This document shows positions 5,225 to 45,058 of a stretch of DNA of 64,000 nucleotides, piece after piece. How positions within the stretch are numbered: the first letter of the stretch is position 1; every line of letters starts with the position of its first letter. Source of the stretch: Candidatus Cloacimonadales bacterium. GTDB lineage: Bacteria > Cloacimonadota > Cloacimonadia > G963667145. The translations under genes and the position numbers were made by a program. The notes beneath the pieces are model-generated. The model did not search any database. It saw nothing but the letters and a program-made list of their open reading frames with translations, and was not told the DNA's origin. Location of the stretch: NCBI GenBank assembly GCA_965228195.1, contig OZ245797.1, positions 356,383-420,382 of the forward strand, given 5' to 3'.

Positions 5225-5509
5225 ATGATAAAGATCCAATTTTTGATGACCATCGCATCGTCCACCGGCATCAGCAAAGCTGAATTAGATAGCAAAGAAG
5301 AGATCACCGTTCTAAAGACTTTGCAAAGGCTGGAAATTCAAGAGAAGAAGCAGATTATCGACAAAATAATGATCCCAGACAAAACCGAGTTCAAACCAGG
5401 TGTGCTAGTGCTGGCAGGCAAAGAGAACGAGCTACAACCGGCGAAGTTCGACACAATCCTAAAAAGCGACTATCTGCTTAAAGTAACCACCATCGTCGGC
5501 GGAGGCTAA
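5225..5509 (+). CDS. small protein ending in -GGG; C-terminal region resembles a ThiS/MoaD-like beta-grasp (ubiquitin-like sulfur-carrier fold)
   Basis: 94 aa. AAGGAGGG RBS lies 7 nt upstream. The C-terminus ...ILKSDYLLKVTTIVGGG resembles ThiS/MoaD termini (…ILLFQVIAGG). Its stop overlaps the RBS (GGAGG) of the downstream E1-like gene. Confidence 0.5.
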   Translation: MIKIQFLMTIASSTGISKAELDSKEEITVLKTLQRLEIQEKKQIIDKIMIPDKTEFKPGVLVLAGKENELQPAKFDTILKSDYLLKVTTIVGGG

Positions 5510-5512
5510 GAG

Positions 5513-6184
5513 TTGGAAACCATTTTTGATCGATCGACTCTGCTCTGGGGCAGGGCGGATCAAGCCAAGCTGACAAAAGCAAGAGTGGTGCTACTGGGCA
5601 TGGGCGGACTCGGCTCGGCAATCGCCCAAGTTCTGGTCAGAGCTGGAGTAGGAGAGCTGACTTTGTTCGACCAAAAGAGAGTAGATTTGCCCGATTTGGG
5701 CAGGCAACTGCTTTACACCCAAGAAGATTTGAACAAATCTAAGCTTGAGGCGGCTAAAGCTGCCATCTTGAGGATAAATCCAGACTGCATCGTCAACACA
5801 GTTTGCCAAGATATAAATAAGCTAAAAAGTTTACCCGCTGCCGACCTTTTTCTCGACTGCTTGGACAACTTTGCCACTCGCCTGAACATCTGGGAGAAGC
5901 TTCCTGCCCAAAGCTTTTTTGTCCATTGTGGCGTGCGAGCTTATCAAGGCCAGGTGATCACCTTGCAAAAAGCAGTCACCCTTGGTCTGCCAGAGCTACT
6001 ACTCTCGGGCAAAGACGACGATGAGAAAATCCCTATAGCCCCTCAGACGGTGATGTTGGCAGGATCTCTAGCGGCAGATGAGGCTATCGGTATCTTGCAA
6101 GGAAAAGCAAAACTTTTAGGGAAGCTCTTTCAGTTTGACCTGAAAAACCACAGCTTTACAACCATCGAAGGTTTCAATCTTTGA
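5513..6184 (+). CDS. ThiF/MoeB/HesA-family E1-like adenylyltransferase (minimal, no CxxC zinc motif)
   Basis: 223 aa with TTG start. It carries the nucleotide-binding VVLLGMGGLGSAIAQVLVRAGVGELTLFDQKRVDLPDLGRQ motif. LDCLDNFATRLNI...HCGVRAYQGQV aligns to MoeB VLDCTDNVAVRNQLN...SGAAIRMEGQI. There are no CxxC pairs. Confidence 0.8.
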   Translation: METIFDRSTLLWGRADQAKLTKARVVLLGMGGLGSAIAQVLVRAGVGELTLFDQKRVDLPDLGRQLLYTQEDLNKSKLEAAKAAILRINPDCIVNTVCQDINKLKSLPAADLFLDCLDNFATRLNIWEKLPAQSFFVHCGVRAYQGQVITLQKAVTLGLPELLLSGKDDDEKIPIAPQTVMLAGSLAADEAIGILQGKAKLLGKLFQFDLKNHSFTTIEGFNL

Positions 6185-14361: not shown

Positions 14362-14625
14362 TTTTAATTTCTATTTTTTAATTTAACAGAGGAGTTTTTT
14401 TTGCCTAAATTCGCAGTAATTTGCCCTGAAGCTGCGTGATGCATCCTGCGATGCTAACAACAGCTGGGCAAGGACGAGGCAGGGCATTTTTAATTATTAA
14501 CTTTTTTTTAATTTAACAGAGGATTTTTTTTGCCTAAATTCGCAGTAATTTGCCCTGAAGCTGTATATTGTATACTGCGATAGGGGAAATTGCAAAAAAG
14601 TTGGGCAAAAAAAAATCCTCTGTTA
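14362..14625. repeat. tandem about 135-bp duplication downstream of the 5S rRNA, forming long hairpins that include the 5S 3' end
   Basis: ttttaatttaacagagga(g)ttttttttgcctaaattcgcagtaatttgccctgaagctg occurs at 14362-14425 and 14497-14560. aacagaggattttttttgcc (14507-) is complementary to ggcaaaaaaaaatcctctgtt (14604-14625), which overlaps the 5S 3' terminus. Confidence 0.6.
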
Positions 14626-14745
14626 TGGCGGCGTCCTACTCTCCCACACAGTCGCCCGTGCAGTACCATCGGCGCAGACAAGCTTAACTGCTGTGTTCGG
14701 AATGGGAACAGGTGTTGCCTTGTCGCTATAGCCACCATAACAAAG
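14618..14745 (-). rRNA. rrf: 5S ribosomal RNA
   Basis: Reverse complement reads TGTTATGGTGGCTATAGCGACAAGGCAACACCTGTTCCCATTCCGAACACAGCAGTTAAGCTTGTCTGCGCCGATGGTACTGCACGGGCGACTGTGTGGGAGAGTAGGACGCCGCCATAACA, with canonical helix I pairing. Confidence 0.9.
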
Positions 14746-14949
14746 AACTTTAGATTTTGTTAAACTGCAAGAATTAGGCTTTATATTTAGCACTCGTTTT
14801 TTGAGAACCTCACCCTCTCGCAGTGTCATAAACACAGCTTCGGGGTTCGTTTCCCTAAAAAACAAGCACTTTAACAAAATCTAAGCTTTGGCTAATTTAA
14901 CAAATTAACAAATTGTTATAGTAAAAAGTTGGTGAGATATTAAAAAGAA

Positions 14950-17932
<2,983 letters not shown>

Positions 17933-18017
17933 TTATCTCACCACTTCTATAAAATTTCTATTCAAAAGATCGAAAAATATTTTTTGCCGCTGATTGCGAC
18001 TTTTTACTCTAAATAAA

Positions 18018-18093
18018 TGGTGGAGGATAACGGATTCGAACCGTTGACATCTTGCTTGCAAAGCAAGCGCTCTACCAGCTGAGCTAATCCCCC
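18018..18093 (-). tRNA. tRNA-Ala (anticodon TGC) in the 16S-23S spacer
   Basis: Reverse complement GGGGGATTAGCTCAGCTGGTAGAGCGCTTGCTTTGCAAGCAAGATGTCAACGGTTCGAATCCGTTATCCTCCACCA. Cloverleaf with G3:U70 and encoded CCA. Confidence 0.92.
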
Positions 18094-18154
18094 AGCAAAT
18101 TGCTGAAGCAATTTGCAATTAATAGTTTATAATTGACAGTTGATAATTAAGGAG

Positions 18155-18508
18155 CTAACGCACGTTTTTCACCTTTTTGACTATTGCAGTCAAAATTTTG
18201 ATTATCTCTATCAAATCGTTTTTAAGACTAAAAACCTCTTTTTCGCCCAAATATTCACCAGCCAACAAATCGAGCCAATACTCTGTTTCACCAGCCTCTT
18301 TGAGAGCTATCGACAATTTCGAGACAAAATCTCTTTTGCTTTGCGCATTTTGACTTTCCTTGATGTTCGCACCAATCGAAGTCCCGCTTCTCAAAATCTG
18401 CCTCGACAAAACATACTCTTTCTTATCAACATTCAAGCTTTTACACAGCTTCACTATCTTTTTAGCAAACACAAACGCTTTCTCGTAAACGATATTTTTT
18501 CTTATCAT
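18155..18508 (-). CDS. four-helix-bundle protein ('23S rRNA intervening-sequence protein' family, TIGR02436 / PF05635) embedded in the 16S-23S ITS
   Basis: 117 aa from the ATG (the ORF track's TTG start at 18556 is probably upstream read-through). The motifs ...RSGTSIGANIKESQNAQSKRDFVSKLSIALKEAGETEYWLDLL... are typical of this family. It is on the same strand as the rRNAs and has a GGAG RBS. Confidence 0.8.
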   Translation of the reverse strand: MIRKNIVYEKAFVFAKKIVKLCKSLNVDKKEYVLSRQILRSGTSIGANIKESQNAQSKRDFVSKLSIALKEAGETEYWLDLLAGEYLGEKEVFSLKNDLIEIIKILTAIVKKVKNVR

Positions 18509-18606
18509 CTTCCAAATCGCTCCAAGCCCCAAAATAATTGCCTTCACAATTATCAATTATGAATTGTCACTTGATAATTCATTTGACACCAAGAAATGGT
18601 GTCAAA

Positions 18607-18683
<77 letters not shown>

Positions 18684-18745
18684 ATCAGAATAAAAATTAG
18701 GTAGAGTAAACCCAAAGCCAATCGGCTTTTTCTTTTTTCCTTTAA

Positions 18746-20311
<1,566 letters not shown>

Positions 20312-37943: not shown

Positions 37944-39047
37944 TCAAATCGACAAAATATCTTTTCGCAATTTTTCCAATATCACTTTGGAATCAATATA
38001 AGGCTGAGCAGCTCTAGCCACCTGTGAACGAAGTGTAGATTGAAATTGCAAAGCAAAATCGTAAACTTTTTGCAAATCAAACTCACATATAAAAGCAAAA
38101 AATTTGTTTGAAAAACTAATATCACTCGTCCCAAGCACAACAGGAATTCCCATTTTTAAATTTTCGCGTATTTTTAAAGATGAACTTTGACTTATATTTA
38201 ATAAATCCATACTAAAAGAACCCAATCCGATATTGATTTTAGGGTAAAATTCGGCTAGCCACTCTTTACTTTTGTTGCCATAAATCTCCACATTTCCAAG
38301 AGATTGCGCCAATTTTTTGTCTTGTTTGTTCTTTATCTGCCCCACTAGATGCAAAACAACTTTTTCGCTCAATTCTGGATGTCTTTTGAAAGAGTTCAAA
38401 ACTTTGTCCAGTCCGTGCCAAGGCCAAAAATTAGCCACAAACCCTAGATGCAAAACTTTTGAGTCCCAAACTGGAAAATCTAAAGCGGAAAAATCCAGAT
38501 TGTCAAAAGACAAAGAGTTAGGAAAAAGTAAAGCTTTCCCTTGGTTTTTTCTTCTTCTTTTTTCATATTCCAAAATGTCGCTAGTCACCGAGACAGAGCC
38601 AGCAAACCTTCGCAAAAACCAGCCTCCAAAATGTTTCTCAAAAATATGCCTAAAATCACCAGTTTTTTTCATCTCCACGATCTCTTTACCGTGATGTTCA
38701 AAATAGATTTTTTTCTTATTTTTCAAAAACAACAAAACAATAGGATCAACCATCGTGTAGCGCAAAACTATTTTTTGATAATAAGGGGCAATTTTGTTGA
38801 TAAAATTGATCTGCATAAACCTGTAATAAAGCCGCTTCCAACCTTTGTTTTTGTCATCTAACTTGACCAAATTAAGATATTTCGGCTTGCTCAAATTGTA
38901 GTCGTAGCACGGCAAACAAAAAAAATCTATTCCCAAATTGTTCAAAGTCGAAGATTTCGCCAAATCTTCCAGCTTGTTGATTATTCCCGAAGAACAGCCA
39001 AAATTCAAAGTGATGTGGGCAATTCTGGGTTTGTTGTTTTTGCTCAT
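37944..39047 (-). CDS. putative glycosyltransferase (GT-B, GT4-like)
   Basis: C-terminal E-x7-E-like ENLKMGIPVVLGT motif and an overall GT-B length. Confidence 0.5.
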   Translation of the reverse strand: MSKNNKPRIAHITLNFGCSSGIINKLEDLAKSSTLNNLGIDFFCLPCYDYNLSKPKYLNLVKLDDKNKGWKRLYYRFMQINFINKIAPYYQKIVLRYTMVDPIVLLFLKNKKKIYFEHHGKEIVEMKKTGDFRHIFEKHFGGWFLRRFAGSVSVTSDILEYEKRRRKNQGKALLFPNSLSFDNLDFSALDFPVWDSKVLHLGFVANFWPWHGLDKVLNSFKRHPELSEKVVLHLVGQIKNKQDKKLAQSLGNVEIYGNKSKEWLAEFYPKINIGLGSFSMDLLNISQSSSLKIRENLKMGIPVVLGTSDISFSNKFFAFICEFDLQKVYDFALQFQSTLRSQVARAAQPYIDSKVILEKLRKDILSI

Positions 39048-39277
39048 TTTTCCCCAACTTTTTGATAAAACTCTGTCTTCGTTTTGTCACAGCCGACACA
39101 ACCGCTACACACTCCTTTGCAACTAAAGCTGTTTTCCACTTTTTTGAGATAGTTCTTTCGCTGCAGCTGTTGCAAAGCCAGCCTCAGCGTTTGAGGATCT
39201 TTTTTCAAAATCACCGACAAGTCGAACAAAGAGATCGTCTTTCTCTCAGCGAAGATTTTTTTTATCTGAGCAATCAT
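39044..39277 (-). CDS. feoC: FeoC-like winged-helix protein with Cys-rich C-terminus
   Basis: 77 aa. The wHTH segment LFDLSVILKKDPQTLRLALQQLQRKNYLKKV is followed by CKGVCSGCVGCD, the same layout as gammaproteobacterial FeoC. Confidence 0.5.
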   Translation of the reverse strand: MIAQIKKIFAERKTISLFDLSVILKKDPQTLRLALQQLQRKNYLKKVENSFSCKGVCSGCVGCDKTKTEFYQKVGEK

Positions 39278-39400
39278 AACTTACCTTTTTTTTGACAACC
39301 TTTTTTAAAAAAACAAGGTGCTTTTTTTTTCTATCACCGCTCTTATGAAAAAGAGACGAAAAAAAAGTAGCACCCTGTTTACTATAGTTTATTTTTTAGC

Positions 39401-39751
39401 TCAACGAACTACGATCGATTTTGCCGTTTTTCTGGGAATAACCAGCCTAGACTCACCCACACAAACCACCAGCTTATCTTTGCCGTCGTTCTTGCTCATC
39501 CTGATTATCTGCCCACTGAAAAGCCCCATTCCAACAGTTTGCTCATCGGGATTTACCACGATTCGGGCTCGTCTGTTTTCTGATAGATCTGCCAGCGGGA
39601 AGCTCCCTTCCGCTTGCCTTGCCTCACAGCGTCGCAGCCGCTCTTGCCTTGCCAAACCTTGCCCACAGCCGGATCTGAAATCTCGGCAATGACCACGACC
39701 TCTGCCCTGCTCCATGCCAACTGCATCTTTTTTGTTATGGGGAAATCTCAT
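39401..39751 (-). CDS. feoA: FeoA-domain protein (second feoA; true start probably internal)
   Basis: C-terminal 70 aa FPLADLSENRRARIVVNPDE...LVIPRKTAKSIVV has the FeoA SH3-like pattern. The N-terminal R/G-rich 45 aa of the ORF is probably not translated (Met13, or an alternative start). Confidence 0.55.
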   Translation of the reverse strand: MRFPHNKKDAVGMEQGRGRGHCRDFRSGCGQGLARQERLRRCEARQAEGSFPLADLSENRRARIVVNPDEQTVGMGLFSGQIIRMSKNDGKDKLVVCVGESRLVIPRKTAKSIVVR

Positions 39752-39778
39752 AGTTCCTCCTAAAATTTACTCTTTAAT

Positions 39779-42076
39779 TTAGTCCTCGATGGGACGATGG
39801 TATCTACTGAGTAGATACATACCAAAGGCAAATCCGCCTACAGTCAACGCAATCAGCAGCGACGATGAGCCAGGGTGAGCAAAGAAATTCGCCAATTGGT
39901 AATAAACCGTGGCTACACACCATGCCAAAATTGTCAAATAAGAACTGACTAAAACTGTCCAACCGAGGTTCGTCTCGCGGTAGATAGCCCCCACAGCGGC
40001 GACGCACGGCACATAGATGAGGATGAAAAGCAAATAGGCGTAGGCGGCTGAAACGCTACCAAACTTTTGTAACATATCGCCGAAAGTGGCAGTGTGGATC
40101 TCCAGCGCCTGAGCAGTCTCCGCTTTGCTTTGTCCAACATCGCCAAACCCTAAAGGGTCTCCCATGGCCACGAAGATCTCGCCCAAACCATCTCCCAGAG
40201 CGACGAAGGCGTCTTCTATTCCCGCCCAAAAATCGAAGCTATCGTTTTCATTAGCAACATCTTCGCTCTTTTTGTAAAGGGAGTTCAGCGTTCCCACCAC
40301 CGCCTCTTTGGCAAAAATACCTGTAAACAAACCCACCGTAGCTGGCCAGTTCTGCTCTTGGATGCCCATTGGCGTAAAAACTGGTGTTATCGTCTTGCCG
40401 ATTGCCGACAAGACCGAACTCTCCGAATCTTCGTTGCCGAAGCTACCGTTGGTGCCGATGGAGTTCAAAAAACTCAACACAACCACGATGATCATAATCG
40501 CTTTACCCGCTTTTTGGATAAACACCTTCAGTCTTTGCCAAGTGTGAAAAAAGATGCCACGGACCGTAGGAATATGGTAACTGGGAAGCTCCATCACAAA
40601 AGTGGAAACCTCACCCTTGATGAGAGTTTTTTTCATAATAAACCCGGTGAAGATAGCCAACAAGATGCCTATCAAGTAAATAGAAAAGACCATTTTACCC
40701 GCGTTGTTGGGGAAAAAAGCTGTTCCAAAAAGGACATAGACAGGAAGCCTTGCCCCGCAAGACATAAACGGAGCCATCATTATCGTCAAGAAACGGTCTT
40801 TGCGGCTCTCCAAAGTGCGAGTCGCCATTATCGCCGGCACCGTGCAACCAAAACCGACCAACATCGGCACAAAAGATTTCCCGGGCAAGCCGATGACTTT
40901 CATCAATCTATCCATCACGAAAGCTGCCCTTGCCATATACCCCGAGTCTTCCAAGATCGATAAACACAAGAAGGTGAAAAAAATCGGAGGGATGAAAGTT
41001 GCCACCGTCTGAATACCTCCACCCAAACCACCGGCTAAAAGAACTTTTGCCCAAACTGGCACTCCGATACTCTCCAGCAAAGAGCCCAAGCCATCGACAA
41101 AGATTGTGCCGGCAAATCCATCAAAAAAGTCGATGAAAGGTCCAGCTAGGTTCAAAGATGCCCAAAAAACCAAATACATCACCACCAAGAAAAGCGGAAT
41201 GCCAATCACGCGGTGCAAAACCACCTTGTCTATGGCTTCGGTGACCGACCTGCCGATCTGGTCGCTACGATTTACCACATCTTCGGCAATTCCGTTGATA
41301 AAACCGTATTTGCCATCGGCGATGACCAAATCGGCGTCTTCACCGGTGTGCTTTTCGATCTTCTCCACCAGCGTCTTGATCTTCTGGTCCAAACTATCTG
41401 GGATCACCTGATAAGCAAACTCGTCGTCTTCCAAAACTTTCACCGCCAGCCAGCGGGCATCCACACGCTCTTTTTGAGCATAAGGCTCCACCAGTGGCAA
41501 GATCTGGTCGATCTGCTGCTCGACCACCTGATCGTAAACGACTCTGGTCGCCGAGATTTTTTTTACCTCCAACTGCGTTGCGATCACCTCTTTCAACTCT
41601 TCCAAACCTTTGTTTGCTGCGGCAACAATCGGCACCACCGGACAATCCAGATGCTTGGCAAAATGTTCGACCTCGATCTTGATCTTCTTGCGTTTTACCG
41701 CGTCCATCATATTCAAGGCAACCACCACCGGCACGCGCATCTCCAGCAGTTGCGTAAGCAGATACAAACTCCGCTCCACATTGGTGGCGTCGATGATGTT
41801 GACCACCACATCGGCTTTCCCCGAGAGAATAAAGTCGCGAGTCACCTTCTCGTCGATTGAGAAGCTGGTCATCGAGTAAATCCCGGGCGTGTCCACCACC
41901 TCGATTTTGGCACCCTTATACTTCATCTGCCCACTTTTTTGCTCCACGGTCACCCCAGGCCAGTTACCCACATACTGGCTGCTGCCGGTTAAGGCGTTAA
42001 ACAGGGTGGTTTTGCCACAATTTGGGTTGCCGGTTACGGCAATAGTCATCTTCTTATTCATCCAAAGCCTCCACAT
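39779..42076 (-). CDS. feoB: ferrous iron transporter FeoB
   Basis: 765 aa. G-domain G1 GNPNCGKTTLFNALTG and G4 NMMD, followed by the gate and core polytopic membrane domain. Confidence 0.92.
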   Translation of the reverse strand: MWRLWMNKKMTIAVTGNPNCGKTTLFNALTGSSQYVGNWPGVTVEQKSGQMKYKGAKIEVVDTPGIYSMTSFSIDEKVTRDFILSGKADVVVNIIDATNVERSLYLLTQLLEMRVPVVVALNMMDAVKRKKIKIEVEHFAKHLDCPVVPIVAAANKGLEELKEVIATQLEVKKISATRVVYDQVVEQQIDQILPLVEPYAQKERVDARWLAVKVLEDDEFAYQVIPDSLDQKIKTLVEKIEKHTGEDADLVIADGKYGFINGIAEDVVNRSDQIGRSVTEAIDKVVLHRVIGIPLFLVVMYLVFWASLNLAGPFIDFFDGFAGTIFVDGLGSLLESIGVPVWAKVLLAGGLGGGIQTVATFIPPIFFTFLCLSILEDSGYMARAAFVMDRLMKVIGLPGKSFVPMLVGFGCTVPAIMATRTLESRKDRFLTIMMAPFMSCGARLPVYVLFGTAFFPNNAGKMVFSIYLIGILLAIFTGFIMKKTLIKGEVSTFVMELPSYHIPTVRGIFFHTWQRLKVFIQKAGKAIMIIVVVLSFLNSIGTNGSFGNEDSESSVLSAIGKTITPVFTPMGIQEQNWPATVGLFTGIFAKEAVVGTLNSLYKKSEDVANENDSFDFWAGIEDAFVALGDGLGEIFVAMGDPLGFGDVGQSKAETAQALEIHTATFGDMLQKFGSVSAAYAYLLFILIYVPCVAAVGAIYRETNLGWTVLVSSYLTILAWCVATVYYQLANFFAHPGSSSLLIALTVGGFAFGMYLLSRYHRPIED

Positions 42077-42740
42077 TCAAAGCGTCCGCCTCTTTCTTAC
42101 GAAGCGTCAGGTTAAAATTGTTTATCAAAATCTCGAGCGGATCTCCCATCGGAGCCACCCTTATCACCTCAAAAACTTTCCCTTTGACCAGTCCCATAGC
42201 CAAAAGTTTCTTGCGATAAGATTTGTCTTGGGTGTCGTAAGAAACGATCTTCGCCTTGTCTCCCACTTTCAAATCTTTAAGCTTCATACTCTCTCTCCTT
42301 AAAATATTATTTTGACAAGCTTTGCACTCTCCAAAAAGGTTAACTTGACAATCTTGCAAAATGAAGTTCTCGTCTTGGCAAATCTTCTCTAGGTTTTTTC
42401 TAACCAAATCGATAGATTTTTCGACAACCTTTCCACATTTTCGACACACAATATGAAAATGTTTCTGGTGACCAAAAATATGCTCATAAAACTCTTTTTC
42501 GCCATTGCCCACCGTCTTCTTGATCAGCTCACACTCTTCCAAAATCGGCAAAGTCCGATAAATGGTAGCTTTGGAAATATCTACAGATTGGTCTAAAAAG
42601 TATTTAAAAATATCGTCCGCGGCAAAATGGGTATGAGTCGAAAAGACATAACCAACAATCAGCTCTCTTTCTTTGGTAATCTTAAATCCACTGTCTTTTA
42701 GTTTCTGCAAAACCGTCTTTTTTTCTTGCATCTTCTTCAC
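42054..42740 (-). CDS. fur: Fur-family metalloregulator fused in-frame to a FeoA domain
   Basis: Residues 1-146 form a Fur fold with HHFHIVCRKCGK and FGECKAC metal sites. Residues 150-228, MKLKDLKVGDKAKIVSY...EVIRVAPMGDPLEILINNFNLTLRKKEADALNVE, are FeoA. There is no in-frame stop between them. An AAGGAG sits 8 nt upstream of the internal FeoA ATG. Confidence 0.8.
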   Translation of the reverse strand: MKKMQEKKTVLQKLKDSGFKITKERELIVGYVFSTHTHFAADDIFKYFLDQSVDISKATIYRTLPILEECELIKKTVGNGEKEFYEHIFGHQKHFHIVCRKCGKVVEKSIDLVRKNLEKICQDENFILQDCQVNLFGECKACQNNILRRESMKLKDLKVGDKAKIVSYDTQDKSYRKKLLAMGLVKGKVFEVIRVAPMGDPLEILINNFNLTLRKKEADALNVEALDE

Positions 42741-42751
42741 CTTCTTAATTG

Positions 42752-42774
42752 TAAATGCAAATCATTCTCATTTA
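42752..42774. promoter_or_regulatory. Fur box upstream of fur-feoA-feoB
   Basis: AATGCAAATCATTCTCATT matches the Fur consensus AATGATAATCATTATCATT at about 15 of 19 positions. It lies in the divergent intergenic region 42741-42862. Confidence 0.5.
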
Positions 42775-42862
42775 GAATATGTGTCAACAACTTTTTTAAA
42801 AGAAACCTAAAAAAGTGTTTGACAACTTTTAAGCCTCTTCAAAGTTTCCAAGAAAATAAAAG

Positions 42863-45058
42863 TTGGAGAATGTTGTTATGAAAAATATCAAAAAAGTCGA
42901 TGCTATGCGTAAATTAGATGGCGAAGTCTTGTTTATCGATGATATTCAAGCTGAAAATCTTTTGCACGCAAAGTTCATTTACTCGAGTAAAGCTCACGCA
43001 AAAATCAATAAAATCAATTTCCCGAAAAATTTCAATCTGGACGAATTTATCTTCGTGGACGCCAAAGATCTTCCTGGTAAAAACATCGTGGAAAACCCGG
43101 TGATGACCCAACCTCTTTTTGCCGAAAACAAAGAGGTGGAGTATTTTGGACAACCGATTATGGGTGTGGCTCACCAAGACAAAGACACCTTGCTCAAGTT
43201 TATGCAAGCCGTCCAAGTTGATTACACCGAGCTTCCAGCTGTTGTGGGGATCAAAGAGTGTTTGGAAAACGAAGAAAACGCTTTTCCTTACGACCCAAAA
43301 GATGTGGGTAACCCTTTCAAATCGCAAATCACAATCGATAATCACCAACACAAAGAGATCGACCCTTCTTGGGTAAAACATCATGGCGTCTACTACACAC
43401 CACACCAAGAGCAGCTCTACATCGAGCCTCAAGGCGTTGTGGCAGAGTATTTTCCTGCCGAGAGCAGGATGTTCGTCAAAGCCGCTTGCCAATGCCCATA
43501 CTACATTCACGAGGCTATCGAAATTTTTTATGGCGATGCCATCAAGAAAGTTGAGATCGAAGAGTCTGACGCTCTGGGCGGAGCTTTTGGCGGTAAAGAG
43601 GACTATCCAAACATCTTGTCAGGTATTGCCAGCCTTATCTCTTACAAAAACGGCGGTGGCAAAGTAAAACTGGTGTTAGATCGTGAAGACGACATCCAGA
43701 TAACCACCAAAAGACACCCCAGCAGATCGGAGATCACCTCTTACACCGACCCCAAAACAGGACAGATGGAAAAAGTTTATATCGATTTCCGTTTGGACGC
43801 TGGTGCTTACGAGACTCACTCTCCAGTGGTGATGGCCAGAGGCGCTCTGCACGCTGGTGGCACCTACAACTGCACCGATGTCAAAATCTTTGCTCGCTTT
43901 TTCAAGAGTAACACTCCACCAAACGGTGCTTTCCGTGGCTTTGGCGCACCTCAGTCGCAGTTCGCCATCGAGGTGCACGCCCAAGAGGTTGCCGACAAAA
44001 TCGGAATTAGCTTCTTAGATTTCAAGAGAAAAAACATCTTGCGACCAAACGACATCTTCCCTACCACGCAGGTAAACAAAGTGGATAGCGTCTACCAGAC
44101 GATGAAGGTTGCTTTGGAAAAATCTGATTACGAGAAAAAAATCAAAGAGTTTGCCGAATACAACAAGAGTCACAAAATCAAAAAAGGCATCGGCATCTCC
44201 ACAGGTATGCACGGCGGTGGATTTACCGGCACCGGCGAGAAGACGATGGCTTCCAAGGTGCGCGTAAACATCGACAAAGACGCCGTTGTCAAAATCTATG
44301 TATCTTCCACAGATATGGGTCAAGGCTGCTCTACCTCGTTGCCCCAATGCTTCAGCGAAGAGATCGGTCATCCTTTGAGCAAAACTTTTTACCAAACTCC
44401 AAACACCCAAAAAACTCCTAACAGCGGGCCAACGGTTGCCTCAAGAACTATCTACATCGTGGGTAACCTTTTGCGAAAAATGGCTAAAGAGTTAGTGGCT
44501 GAAGATTTCGGTGGCAAGAAGATCGAAGATTATGTAGCTGCCAATCAAGACCAATTCCCTAAAGATTTTTACAAAACTTTCGAACTAGACCCATCTATCC
44601 AGTTCGATGTGGCAACCTACAAAGGCATGGGATACGGAGATTTCTCTTGGGGTTGTGGAGTCGTCGAAATTGAATACGATCCAGACACCTACCAAGTCGA
44701 TGTGAAAAAAAGCTGGTTTGGTATCGATGTTGGCAGAAGAGTCAACCAAGAGATTTGCGAAGGGCAGATCCAAGGCGGAGTATTGCAAGCCATCGGCTGG
44801 GGTTCGACCGAGTATATCGAAAGAAAGAATATGAAAGGGACATCGATCACCGACTACATCGCTTACACCAGTGCCGACGCTCCTGAGCTGAATGTCTATT
44901 TCACCGACAACGACGCTTCCAAGCCAAAAGGTTTGGGCGAGTTGCCTATGGACTTCCCCGCCTCGGCAGTTACCGACGCTCTGCACAACGCCACCGGCAT
45001 CATCTTACCGGAAATTCCAGTGATCCCCGAGAACATCAGAGACGCTATCAAAAACTAA
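42863..45058 (+). CDS. molybdopterin-dependent oxidoreductase, xanthine dehydrogenase / aldehyde oxidase large (MoCo-binding) subunit family
   Basis: 731 aa. a/b-hammerhead N-terminal region and GGGFGGK-like GGAFGGKEDY motif, with C-terminal MoCo-binding domains. Confidence 0.8.
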   Translation: MENVVMKNIKKVDAMRKLDGEVLFIDDIQAENLLHAKFIYSSKAHAKINKINFPKNFNLDEFIFVDAKDLPGKNIVENPVMTQPLFAENKEVEYFGQPIMGVAHQDKDTLLKFMQAVQVDYTELPAVVGIKECLENEENAFPYDPKDVGNPFKSQITIDNHQHKEIDPSWVKHHGVYYTPHQEQLYIEPQGVVAEYFPAESRMFVKAACQCPYYIHEAIEIFYGDAIKKVEIEESDALGGAFGGKEDYPNILSGIASLISYKNGGGKVKLVLDREDDIQITTKRHPSRSEITSYTDPKTGQMEKVYIDFRLDAGAYETHSPVVMARGALHAGGTYNCTDVKIFARFFKSNTPPNGAFRGFGAPQSQFAIEVHAQEVADKIGISFLDFKRKNILRPNDIFPTTQVNKVDSVYQTMKVALEKSDYEKKIKEFAEYNKSHKIKKGIGISTGMHGGGFTGTGEKTMASKVRVNIDKDAVVKIYVSSTDMGQGCSTSLPQCFSEEIGHPLSKTFYQTPNTQKTPNSGPTVASRTIYIVGNLLRKMAKELVAEDFGGKKIEDYVAANQDQFPKDFYKTFELDPSIQFDVATYKGMGYGDFSWGCGVVEIEYDPDTYQVDVKKSWFGIDVGRRVNQEICEGQIQGGVLQAIGWGSTEYIERKNMKGTSITDYIAYTSADAPELNVYFTDNDASKPKGLGELPMDFPASAVTDALHNATGIILPEIPVIPENIRDAIKN

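Follow-up and report, generated by a model that had tools for sequence, protein, structure and literature searches.

The DNA analysed here is a 64,000-nucleotide (nt) stretch of contig OZ245797.1 from a Candidatus Cloacimonadales bacterium, referred to below as the window. It contains a ferrous-iron uptake (feo) locus, all on the minus strand between positions 39044 and 42790, in which a gene that joins fur and feoA in one reading frame is preceded by a predicted Fur operator and followed by feoB, a second feoA-domain gene (feoA2) and a feoC-like gene. Domains and families were assigned with Pfam and NCBIfam models. An initial annotation, made from the letters alone, had described a single open reading frame (ORF) of 228 amino acids encoding a complete Fur followed by a complete FeoA. 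The two domains hold, as the Fur domain (PF01475) occupies residues 17-135 (E 1.5e-25, 90.1 bits with a cut-off of 23.1, model positions 2-120 of 121) and the FeoA domain (PF04023) residues 152-224 (E 3.3e-21, 75.6 bits with a cut-off of 23, model positions 1-73 of 74), both numbered on the 228-amino-acid ORF. The start is the part that likely has to be moved. The ORF would extend over 42054-42740 if GTG 42740 were used, with TAA at 42054-42056 as its stop, while the orthologs all begin MQEKK or alike, which places the start at ATG 42731 and gives a protein of 225 amino acids.

A search of 5.8 billion proteins returned six fused relatives with 72-90% protein identity, each containing both Pfam domains, and five of the six are encoded on complete chromosomes of ~1.55 Mb from Candidatus Cloacimonadota or Cloacimonadales. 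The Fur domain of a seventh fused protein, P0031, is identical to that of the window. All five chromosomal loci have the gene order fusion, feoB, feoA2, feoC, mostly with a divergent xanthine-dehydrogenase-family gene upstream, and at least six Cloacimonadota species retain the fused ORF together with feoB, feoA2 and feoC. The frame is open across the junction in every fused ortholog compared; a stop codon or frameshift concealed at the junction, which the initial annotation had named as the point to check, was looked for, and the frame is open in six independently assembled relatives. Only 24 of the 132 amino-acid-invariant columns (18%) are also invariant in codon. Within the protein, conservation is highest in the FeoA domain (86-97% identity), where in pairwise comparison 25-56% of the identical residues differ in codon, with ~45% of synonymous codons different. 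These figures indicate purifying selection on the fusion gene, and we have next to no doubt that fur-feoA is a real fused gene.

The two parts of the protein each resemble a known structure. AlphaFold2, run with an alignment of 58 sequences, gave a mean predicted local distance difference test (pLDDT) score of 88 and three modules, each confident: a winged helix, an alpha/beta dimerisation domain and a five-stranded SH3-like domain. In Foldseek the first 140 residues matched the Fur proteins of Pseudomonas aeruginosa, Francisella tularensis and Magnetospirillum gryphiswaldense with target-normalised template modelling (TM) scores of 0.79-0.85, those to the holo-Fur structures 1mzb and 6h1c being 0.83-0.85. 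A Cys4 zinc site (C96-x2-C99 and C136-x2-C139) is invariant in all 17 aligned fusions. The Fur part was aligned with the Campylobacter jejuni and Bacillus cereus Fur sequences in the PDB, and through C. jejuni Fur the ligands of the regulatory site 2 (H35, E83, H91, H93, E104) were found to be kept, and invariant in the clade. For these sites we assume the numbering of Helicobacter pylori Fur (2xig), in which site 2 would be H42, E90, H97, H99 and E110 and site 3 H96, D98, E117 and H134. Three further cysteines, C67, C118 and C128, are invariant in seven aligned Cloacimonadota fusion sequences and absent from the closest unfused Fur (P0032); C128 sits at the position of a site-3 histidine, and the three could form an extra metal or redox site. 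The last 77 residues match the Chlorobium FeoA 2k5f in both the PDB sequence search and Foldseek (E 1.6e-13; 42% identity over 79 columns).

Upstream of the fusion, a Fur box had been proposed in the initial annotation, and the 19-mer listed in Table 1 bears this out. Its core, TGAGAATGATTTGCA, agrees with the 7-1-7 Fur consensus, which we take to be TGATAATNATTATCA, at 11 of 14 positions and occurs exactly once in the window. The box lies between a -35-like hexamer and the start codon. Each ortholog locus has it once, always at a distance of 27-45 nt upstream of the start codon. It closely follows TTGACA, a hexamer found unchanged in the six orthologous loci and in L007, the locus of the closest unfused relative. 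Further Fur boxes in the window, which would have outlined a regulon, were considered and rejected, as the seven matches found at up to 3 mismatches are near the chance level, with 3.5 expected and 6 of 100 shuffles reaching 7. Boxes nearly identical to that of the window, described by the degenerate form TGNGAAYRATTYGCA, are present upstream of two unrelated fusions, with two copies in L012 and one in L021 (TGCGAATGATTTGCA), and this form occurs nowhere else in the ~170 kb of fetched loci. Palindromic Fur-like boxes also precede the fusions of L008 and L017, that of L008 being a perfect palindrome (TGAAAATCATTTTCA) located 24 nt before the start codon. It is very probable that the operon is autoregulated through this predicted operator by its own first product.

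Within the fusion, the initial annotation had pointed to a Shine-Dalgarno (SD) sequence for an internal FeoA start codon, and this signal is indeed found. The AAGGAG of the linker codons is followed after 7 nt by an in-frame ATG (42285-42287) that encodes Met149, and AAGGAG-N7-ATG is invariant in all six genomes. The linker residues vary around the invariant AGGAG (RRES, RREE, RSRS, RREK, RRVN in the six genomes). Among the six invariant-Arg columns of the gene only that of Arg145 is also codon-invariant, and at the position of Arg146 five genomes have AGA and the sixth has AGT (Ser), so that AG is kept. Crude calling gave 48 genes in the window with 269 internal in-frame ATGs, and none of these but Met149 is preceded by AGGAG at a distance of 4-10 nt. 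The window also carries a complete rRNA operon (14623-20311, minus strand; 16S, tRNA-Ile, tRNA-Ala, 23S, 5S), and the 3' end of its 16S rRNA, ...GGATCACCTCCTTT (CACCTCCTTT), is a canonical anti-SD. Other genes of the operon share this type of SD, with AGGAGG before feoA2 and GGAGG before feoB, and the RNA at the junction is less structured than shuffled controls (z = +1.15). An in-frame start, a ribosome-binding site, suitable spacing and an SD-using organism are thus all in evidence, and translation from Met149 alone would yield a FeoA of 77 amino acids.

The suggestion that FeoA may be made both fused and free therefore gains comparative support. Since AAGGAG and ATG are invariant, the site is unique in the window, the anti-SD is canonical and the local RNA is unstructured, free 77-amino-acid FeoA is plausibly made alongside the fusion, and we regard the case for a functional internal start as evenly balanced. 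Similar signals occur at the junctions of independent fusions, namely AGGAGG-N6-ATG in L012, GAGGAGG-N8-ATG in L013 and GAGG-N8-ATG in L021, and the signature is weak at the L006 junction. The internal site is most simply read as the inherited start of a formerly separate gene. In-frame internal starts that give two products are known from cheA, with its long and short forms, and from infB and clpB; the fur-feoA gene resembles these in having an in-frame SD and ATG at a domain boundary, from which a C-terminal product would arise besides the full-length protein.

Table 1. Coordinates of the features of the feo locus in the window, with the evidence on which each is based
Feature	Position	Strand	Evidence and remarks
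TTGACA, -35-like hexamer	42782..42787	-	Sequence and upstream comparison; promoter assignment putative
Fur box (predicted operator)	42754..42772	-	15-nt core TGAGAATGATTTGCA at 42756-42770
fur-feoA fusion gene, 225 amino acids	42054..42731	-	ORF list, Pfam, six fused orthologs, five chromosomal loci
Fur part, residues 1-140	42312..42731	-	Pfam, PDB alignment, Foldseek, invariant columns
Internal SD AAGGAG in linker codons L144-R145-R146	42295..42300	-	Conservation; 7 nt before internal ATG
FeoA part, residues 149-225	42057..42287	-	Pfam, PDB and Foldseek matches
feoB, 760 amino acids from ATG 42061	39779..42061	-	NCBIfam equivalog, Pfam; start set from five orthologs
feoA2, 116 amino acids	39401..39751	-	Pfam FeoA in residues 52-116; SD AGGAGG upstream
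Terminator-like hairpin and seven U, between feoA2 and feoC	39304..39380	-	RNA folding
feoC-like gene, 77 amino acids	39044..39277	-	Pfam FeoC; position kept in L001-L005

The remaining genes of the locus, feoB, a second feoA and a FeoC-like gene, had been recognised in the initial annotation, and all score above their Pfam or NCBIfam cut-offs. FeoB reaches 796 bits with the NCBIfam FeoB equivalog (cut-off 683) and contains the Pfam domains FeoB_N, FeoB_Cyto, Gate and FeoB_C. Its overlap with the fusion had been given as 23 nt, a figure that came from the longest possible ORF and has to be corrected: the N-terminus from ATG 42061, MNKKMTIAV, resembles the ortholog starts MSKKYTVAV, MKKDYTIAV and MSKKFTIAV, and a GGAGG at 42068-42072 lies 6 nt before this ATG, so that the overlap with the end of the fusion is 8 nt, in a different frame. 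The feoA2 product is a divergent FeoA (E 3.3e-6, 27.5 bits, cut-off 23), compared with which the fused FeoA is of the canonical type (76 bits against 27), and BLASTP found no similarity between the two. FeoA2 carries an N-terminal extension of ~50 amino acids rich in Arg, Gly, Cys and His, for which Pfam gave no match even at E <= 1; its motif RQERLRRCE is common to all orthologs and present in a diverged form in L007, and feoA2 itself is conserved in all relatives and in L007. The FeoC-like protein scores 34.9 bits with Pfam FeoC (PF09012; cut-off 21). It is a small winged-helix protein with a C-terminal Cys-rich motif, C-x4-C-x2-C-x2-C, encoded downstream of feoB, as expected of FeoC. The hairpin between feoA2 and feoC has the stem CAGGGUGCU/AGCACCUUG (-26.6 kcal/mol, z = -2.2) and received no call in a consensus terminator scan. 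A TTGTCA hexamer comes after the hairpin, so that separate transcription or attenuation of feoC is possible.

Two neighbouring genes were also noted. A gene for a molybdopterin-binding subunit of the xanthine-dehydrogenase/aldehyde-oxidase family (42863-45058, plus strand) diverges from the fusion and shares with it the intergenic region of ~130 nt that holds the Fur box. This arrangement is kept in L001, L002, L004 and L005, and in L003 two extra ORFs (158 and 240 amino acids) separate the two genes; the divergent gene may be under iron co-regulation. On the other side, a glycosyltransferase-like gene (37944-39047, minus strand) overlaps the feoC stop codon (ATGA). Among five related loci only L003 has one; the gene looks like a variable insertion, with feoC on one side and the conserved gene for a membrane protein of 770-800 amino acids on the other.

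The initial annotation had called for a survey of Fur-FeoA fusions in databases, and such fusions were found, though they are rare. When 1.84 billion cluster representatives were searched with HMMER in filter-only mode, 14,413 matches at E <= 0.001 were obtained, and the best 150, which were inspected, include ten full-length fusions outside the Cloacimonadota clade. A profile search of the 5.8-billion-protein set gave 935 Fur matches, of which the best 120 include 18 fused clusters. By neighbour-joining of the Fur domains, the fusions fall into the Cloacimonadota clade, two more all-fused clades and seven singletons, and the nearest neighbours of the singletons are ordinary unfused Furs. The host loci span 26% to 69% GC. 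The presence of fusions in at least 10 lineages indicates either repeated independent fusion or an ancient fusion with many reversals.

The genomic context of these fusions is uniform in one respect, as in all 11 of the 11 non-Cloacimonadota cases with a readable context the next gene is feoB, or feoA and then feoB; L021 additionally has feoC. Separate feoA genes are present in the fusion operons of L012, L013, L019 and L021. No FeoA-domain gene lies between the fusion and feoB in L006 and L008/L009, where feoB runs to the end of the contig, and the fetched contigs of L010/L011 and L017 show no further called FeoA-domain gene in the neighbourhood of feoB. In L013 an ordinary Fur of 148 amino acids (720-1166) is encoded ~400 nt upstream of the Fur-FeoA gene, and the fusion there is a second Fur paralogue, probably dedicated to feo. 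The Fur searches also contained three proteins of 331-366 amino acids (P0035, P0053 and P0180) with two complete Fur domains in tandem each; such single-chain Fur-Fur proteins could be able to form an intramolecular dimer.

The closest unfused relative, P0032, is encoded in L007, where fur and feoA are adjacent and joined as TAA-AA-ATG. The feoA of this locus (5436-5824) is split into fragments of 30 and 45-68 amino acids by a frame disruption together with an AT-rich insertion or rearrangement of ~145 nt, which is bounded by a perfect 14-nt inverted repeat (GAGACCTTTGCAAA / TTTGCAAAGGTCTC). The fur, feoB and feoA2 genes of L007 are intact.

Phrase searches of the open-access literature returned only papers on Fur and feoAB operators, and a Fur-FeoA fusion was not described in the literature searched. 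In a survey of Feo evolution FeoA is said to occur sometimes with "an additional domain" and nothing further is added (PMC8749426); a survey of FeoAB fusions explicitly discarded FeoA fused to regulators. The architecture therefore seems undescribed in the searched literature, all of its components belonging to known families, and it may well be listed in InterPro. Annotation pipelines leave Fur-FeoA proteins unnamed.

Taken together, we consider it fairly probable that the locus contains a genuine fusion, maintained by selection, as the first gene of a ferrous-iron uptake operon that is probably self-repressed. In such an operon Fe2+ bound at the intact site 2 would cause the Fur part to dimerise, bind the box and shut down the whole operon including its own gene. 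The FeoA part, held on a flexible linker of ~8 residues after the last zinc-binding cysteine, would be a canonical SH3-like partner of the FeoB G-domain. The fusion could have originated when a fur/feoA pair, with the feoA ribosome-binding site lying inside the 3' end of fur, lost the stop codon of fur, an origin suggested by the SD-ATG at several independent junctions and by the adjacent fur and feoA of L007. Afterwards some lineages would have kept the internal ribosome-binding site and others would have lost it. Where AAGGAG-N7-ATG is retained, two products may be made, a 26-kDa Fur-FeoA and a free FeoA of 77 amino acids. A Fur dimer would in that case have two modules for binding FeoB, which could place the iron sensor at the transporter. 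That the fused FeoA does contact FeoB we consider possible, though short of probable. In the Bacteroides fragilis FeoAB fusion FeoA binds NFeoB in a nucleotide-dependent manner (PMC8980893).

A more far-reaching possibility, which must be regarded as quite speculative and improbable as it stands, is that the Fur dimer uses FeoA to bind the FeoB G-domain nucleotide-dependently, so that iron flux sets transcription. If so, Fur might be loaded with Fe2+ at the exit of the permease, or might be held at the membrane while FeoB is active, a sequestration that can be likened to Mlc-PtsG or MalT-MalK. Free FeoA would compete for the same site on FeoB and tune the switch. Were this true, FeoA would gain a signalling role, and the same logic would have evolved independently in the DtxR-family and Fur-family regulators.

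Several observations weigh against a self-repressing, selectively maintained fusion, or against parts of it. The mutual arrangement of the domains was not predicted confidently by AlphaFold2, with a predicted TM-score (pTM) of 0.51 and a pLDDT of 67 for linker residues 141-150, and a docking of the domains was accordingly not derived from the model. Metal site 3 is lost, its positions being K90, F92, R111 and C128 (HHDH reads KHFH), although this site is not universal in the Fur family. The best NCBIfam match of the Fur part, the Bacillus-type Fur, reaches 73.6 bits with a cut-off of 220, followed by E. coli-type Fur at 63.7 and PerR at 62.9 bits; as the cut-offs for Fur, PerR and Zur are all widely missed, iron specificity is assigned from context and the site-2 ligands only. 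A sigma-70 consensus scan called no minus-strand promoter upstream of the fusion. The -10 candidate 17 nt downstream of TTGACA, TGATTT (42759-42764), is poor, and TTGACA-N28-TACAAT has an impossible spacing, so a canonical sigma-70 promoter was rejected. A tblastn search for a second Fur found none in the 64-kb window, a result whose scope is the window only; a tblastn search for a second FeoA likewise found none within the window. Four independent fusions (L010, L014, L015 and L017) are without an internal start, so the dual product is not a general feature. The conservation of the SD comes from six genomes that are related to one another, and at Arg145 the amino acid is conserved as well. 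Finally, the homologous feoA of L007 is broken and its feoA2 intact, which suggests that this FeoA can be dispensable.

The last of these points bears on an alternative that we consider unlikely, namely that the C-terminal FeoA/SH3 domain serves the repressor, by oligomerisation on DNA or by stabilisation as in MtsR and DtxR, and not the transporter, FeoB being served by free FeoA2 or, in other clades, by a separate feoA. The regulators DtxR, IdeR, MtsR, SloR and PgMntR likewise combine a winged helix, metal-binding dimerisation and a C-terminal FeoA-family domain (PMC6698748), and like the protein predicted here they are metal-dependent repressors of metal-uptake genes. DtxR-family metalloregulators normally end in a FeoA domain, which in MtsR is required for repression and brings about dimer-dimer oligomerisation at promoter DNA (PMC6698748). 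Most fusion operons do encode a separate FeoA, whether feoA2 as in the window or the feoA genes of L012, L013, L019 and L021; the two tandem boxes of L012 fit cooperative binding; and L007 lost the homologous FeoA while keeping fur, feoB and feoA2. The composition of the protein is different from that of the DtxR family, however, as the fusion has PF01475 in place of PF01325 and PF02742, neither of which (the DtxR-type helix-turn-helix or dimerisation domain) was found by Pfam at E <= 0.01, and its FeoA is of the transporter-associated type and encoded next to feoB. The PDB sequence matches of this domain are all FeoA or the FeoA of FeoAB, with no DtxR, IdeR or MntR at E <= 0.001, and no member of the DtxR family is in the Foldseek top 50; a DtxR-like fold for the whole protein was rejected on the same searches. 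Every fusion is linked to feoB, which is unexpected for a generic regulator domain, and for L010/L011 and L017 gene calling on the fetched contigs gave no FeoA-domain gene in the vicinity of feoB apart from the fusion. The conserved internal start also suggests that the domain is wanted alone too.

Somewhat less likely again, in our view, is that the fusion is a near-neutral read-through, in which a lost stop codon joined operon neighbours that continue to act independently and the internal SD and ATG are a decaying relic. Neighbouring genes of an operon fuse easily, the architecture is rare in the counts given above for the best 120 Fur matches, small fused clades and single fusions are dispersed among unfused Furs, the linker has few residues and varies in sequence, and four lineages have lost any internal start. 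The fusion has nevertheless been kept across at least six species whose synonymous sites are ~45% diverged, with no reversion to the unfused state seen within the Cloacimonadota fusion clade, and it arose repeatedly, in at least 10 lineages over the GC range reported. Moreover, AGGAG is invariant in nucleotides amid changing linker residues, and an unselected relic should have decayed.

An assembly or sequencing artefact, in which a missed stop or an indel joined two genes, can be dismissed as scarcely conceivable even though one related protein (P0007) is indeed artefactual, as six orthologs with diverged synonymous sites keep the frame, the open frame recurs with different nucleotides in five complete chromosomes and in further metagenome contigs, and unrelated fusions are present in JGI, ENA, NCBI and Logan assemblies. 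P0007, a xanthine-dehydrogenase/Fur-FeoA hybrid, was set aside because it derives from a foldback chimeric long-read contig with 5x coverage. On this 6.1-kb contig (L018) the feo locus is present in several inverted copies, producing a chimeric ORF of a xanthine-dehydrogenase fragment, a Fur C-terminus and FeoA, and the artefact has reached the protein databases.

The operon can thus be compared with two well-known types of feo system. Like the Fur-repressed feoABC of the E. coli type, it encodes FeoB as a G-protein-coupled permease, has an SH3-like feoA upstream and a winged-helix, Cys-rich FeoC, and carries a predicted Fur box at the putative promoter. It differs in that fur is part of the operon and fused to feoA, so that the repressor would be autoregulated together with the transporter, in that a divergent second feoA follows feoB, and in that feoC lies behind a terminator-like hairpin. 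With the Bacteroides fragilis FeoAB it shares a FeoA tethered covalently, by a short linker, to a protein of the Feo system. FeoA-FeoB fusions have been used to infer an action of FeoA on the G-domain of FeoB (PMC8980893, PMC8749426). Here, in contrast, FeoA is the C-terminal domain of the regulator and FeoB is encoded by a separate gene in another frame with the 8-nt overlap; the TAA at 42054-42056 and the feoB start at 42061 show that FeoA and the FeoB G-domain are not one polypeptide.

How FeoA works with FeoB is still called enigmatic (PMC8980893), and the Fur-FeoA proteins constitute a second independent class of natural FeoA fusions, in which FeoA is joined to the iron sensor; this class is recurrent, linked to feoB and sometimes provides the sole FeoA of the operon. 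As evidence of the Rosetta-stone type, the fusions raise the possibility that Fur may physically interact with the Feo machinery, or that metalloregulators may in general use the FeoA fold as an add-on module, as in the DtxR family. Any functional meaning of the tether is conjectural, and the arrangement hints that the sensing of iron and its import may be directly linked. With a genome of 1.56 Mb, an operon of four genes and one predicted operator, the organism would offer a compact model in which to ask whether the signal read by a metal sensor can be transport flux and not the bulk metal pool.

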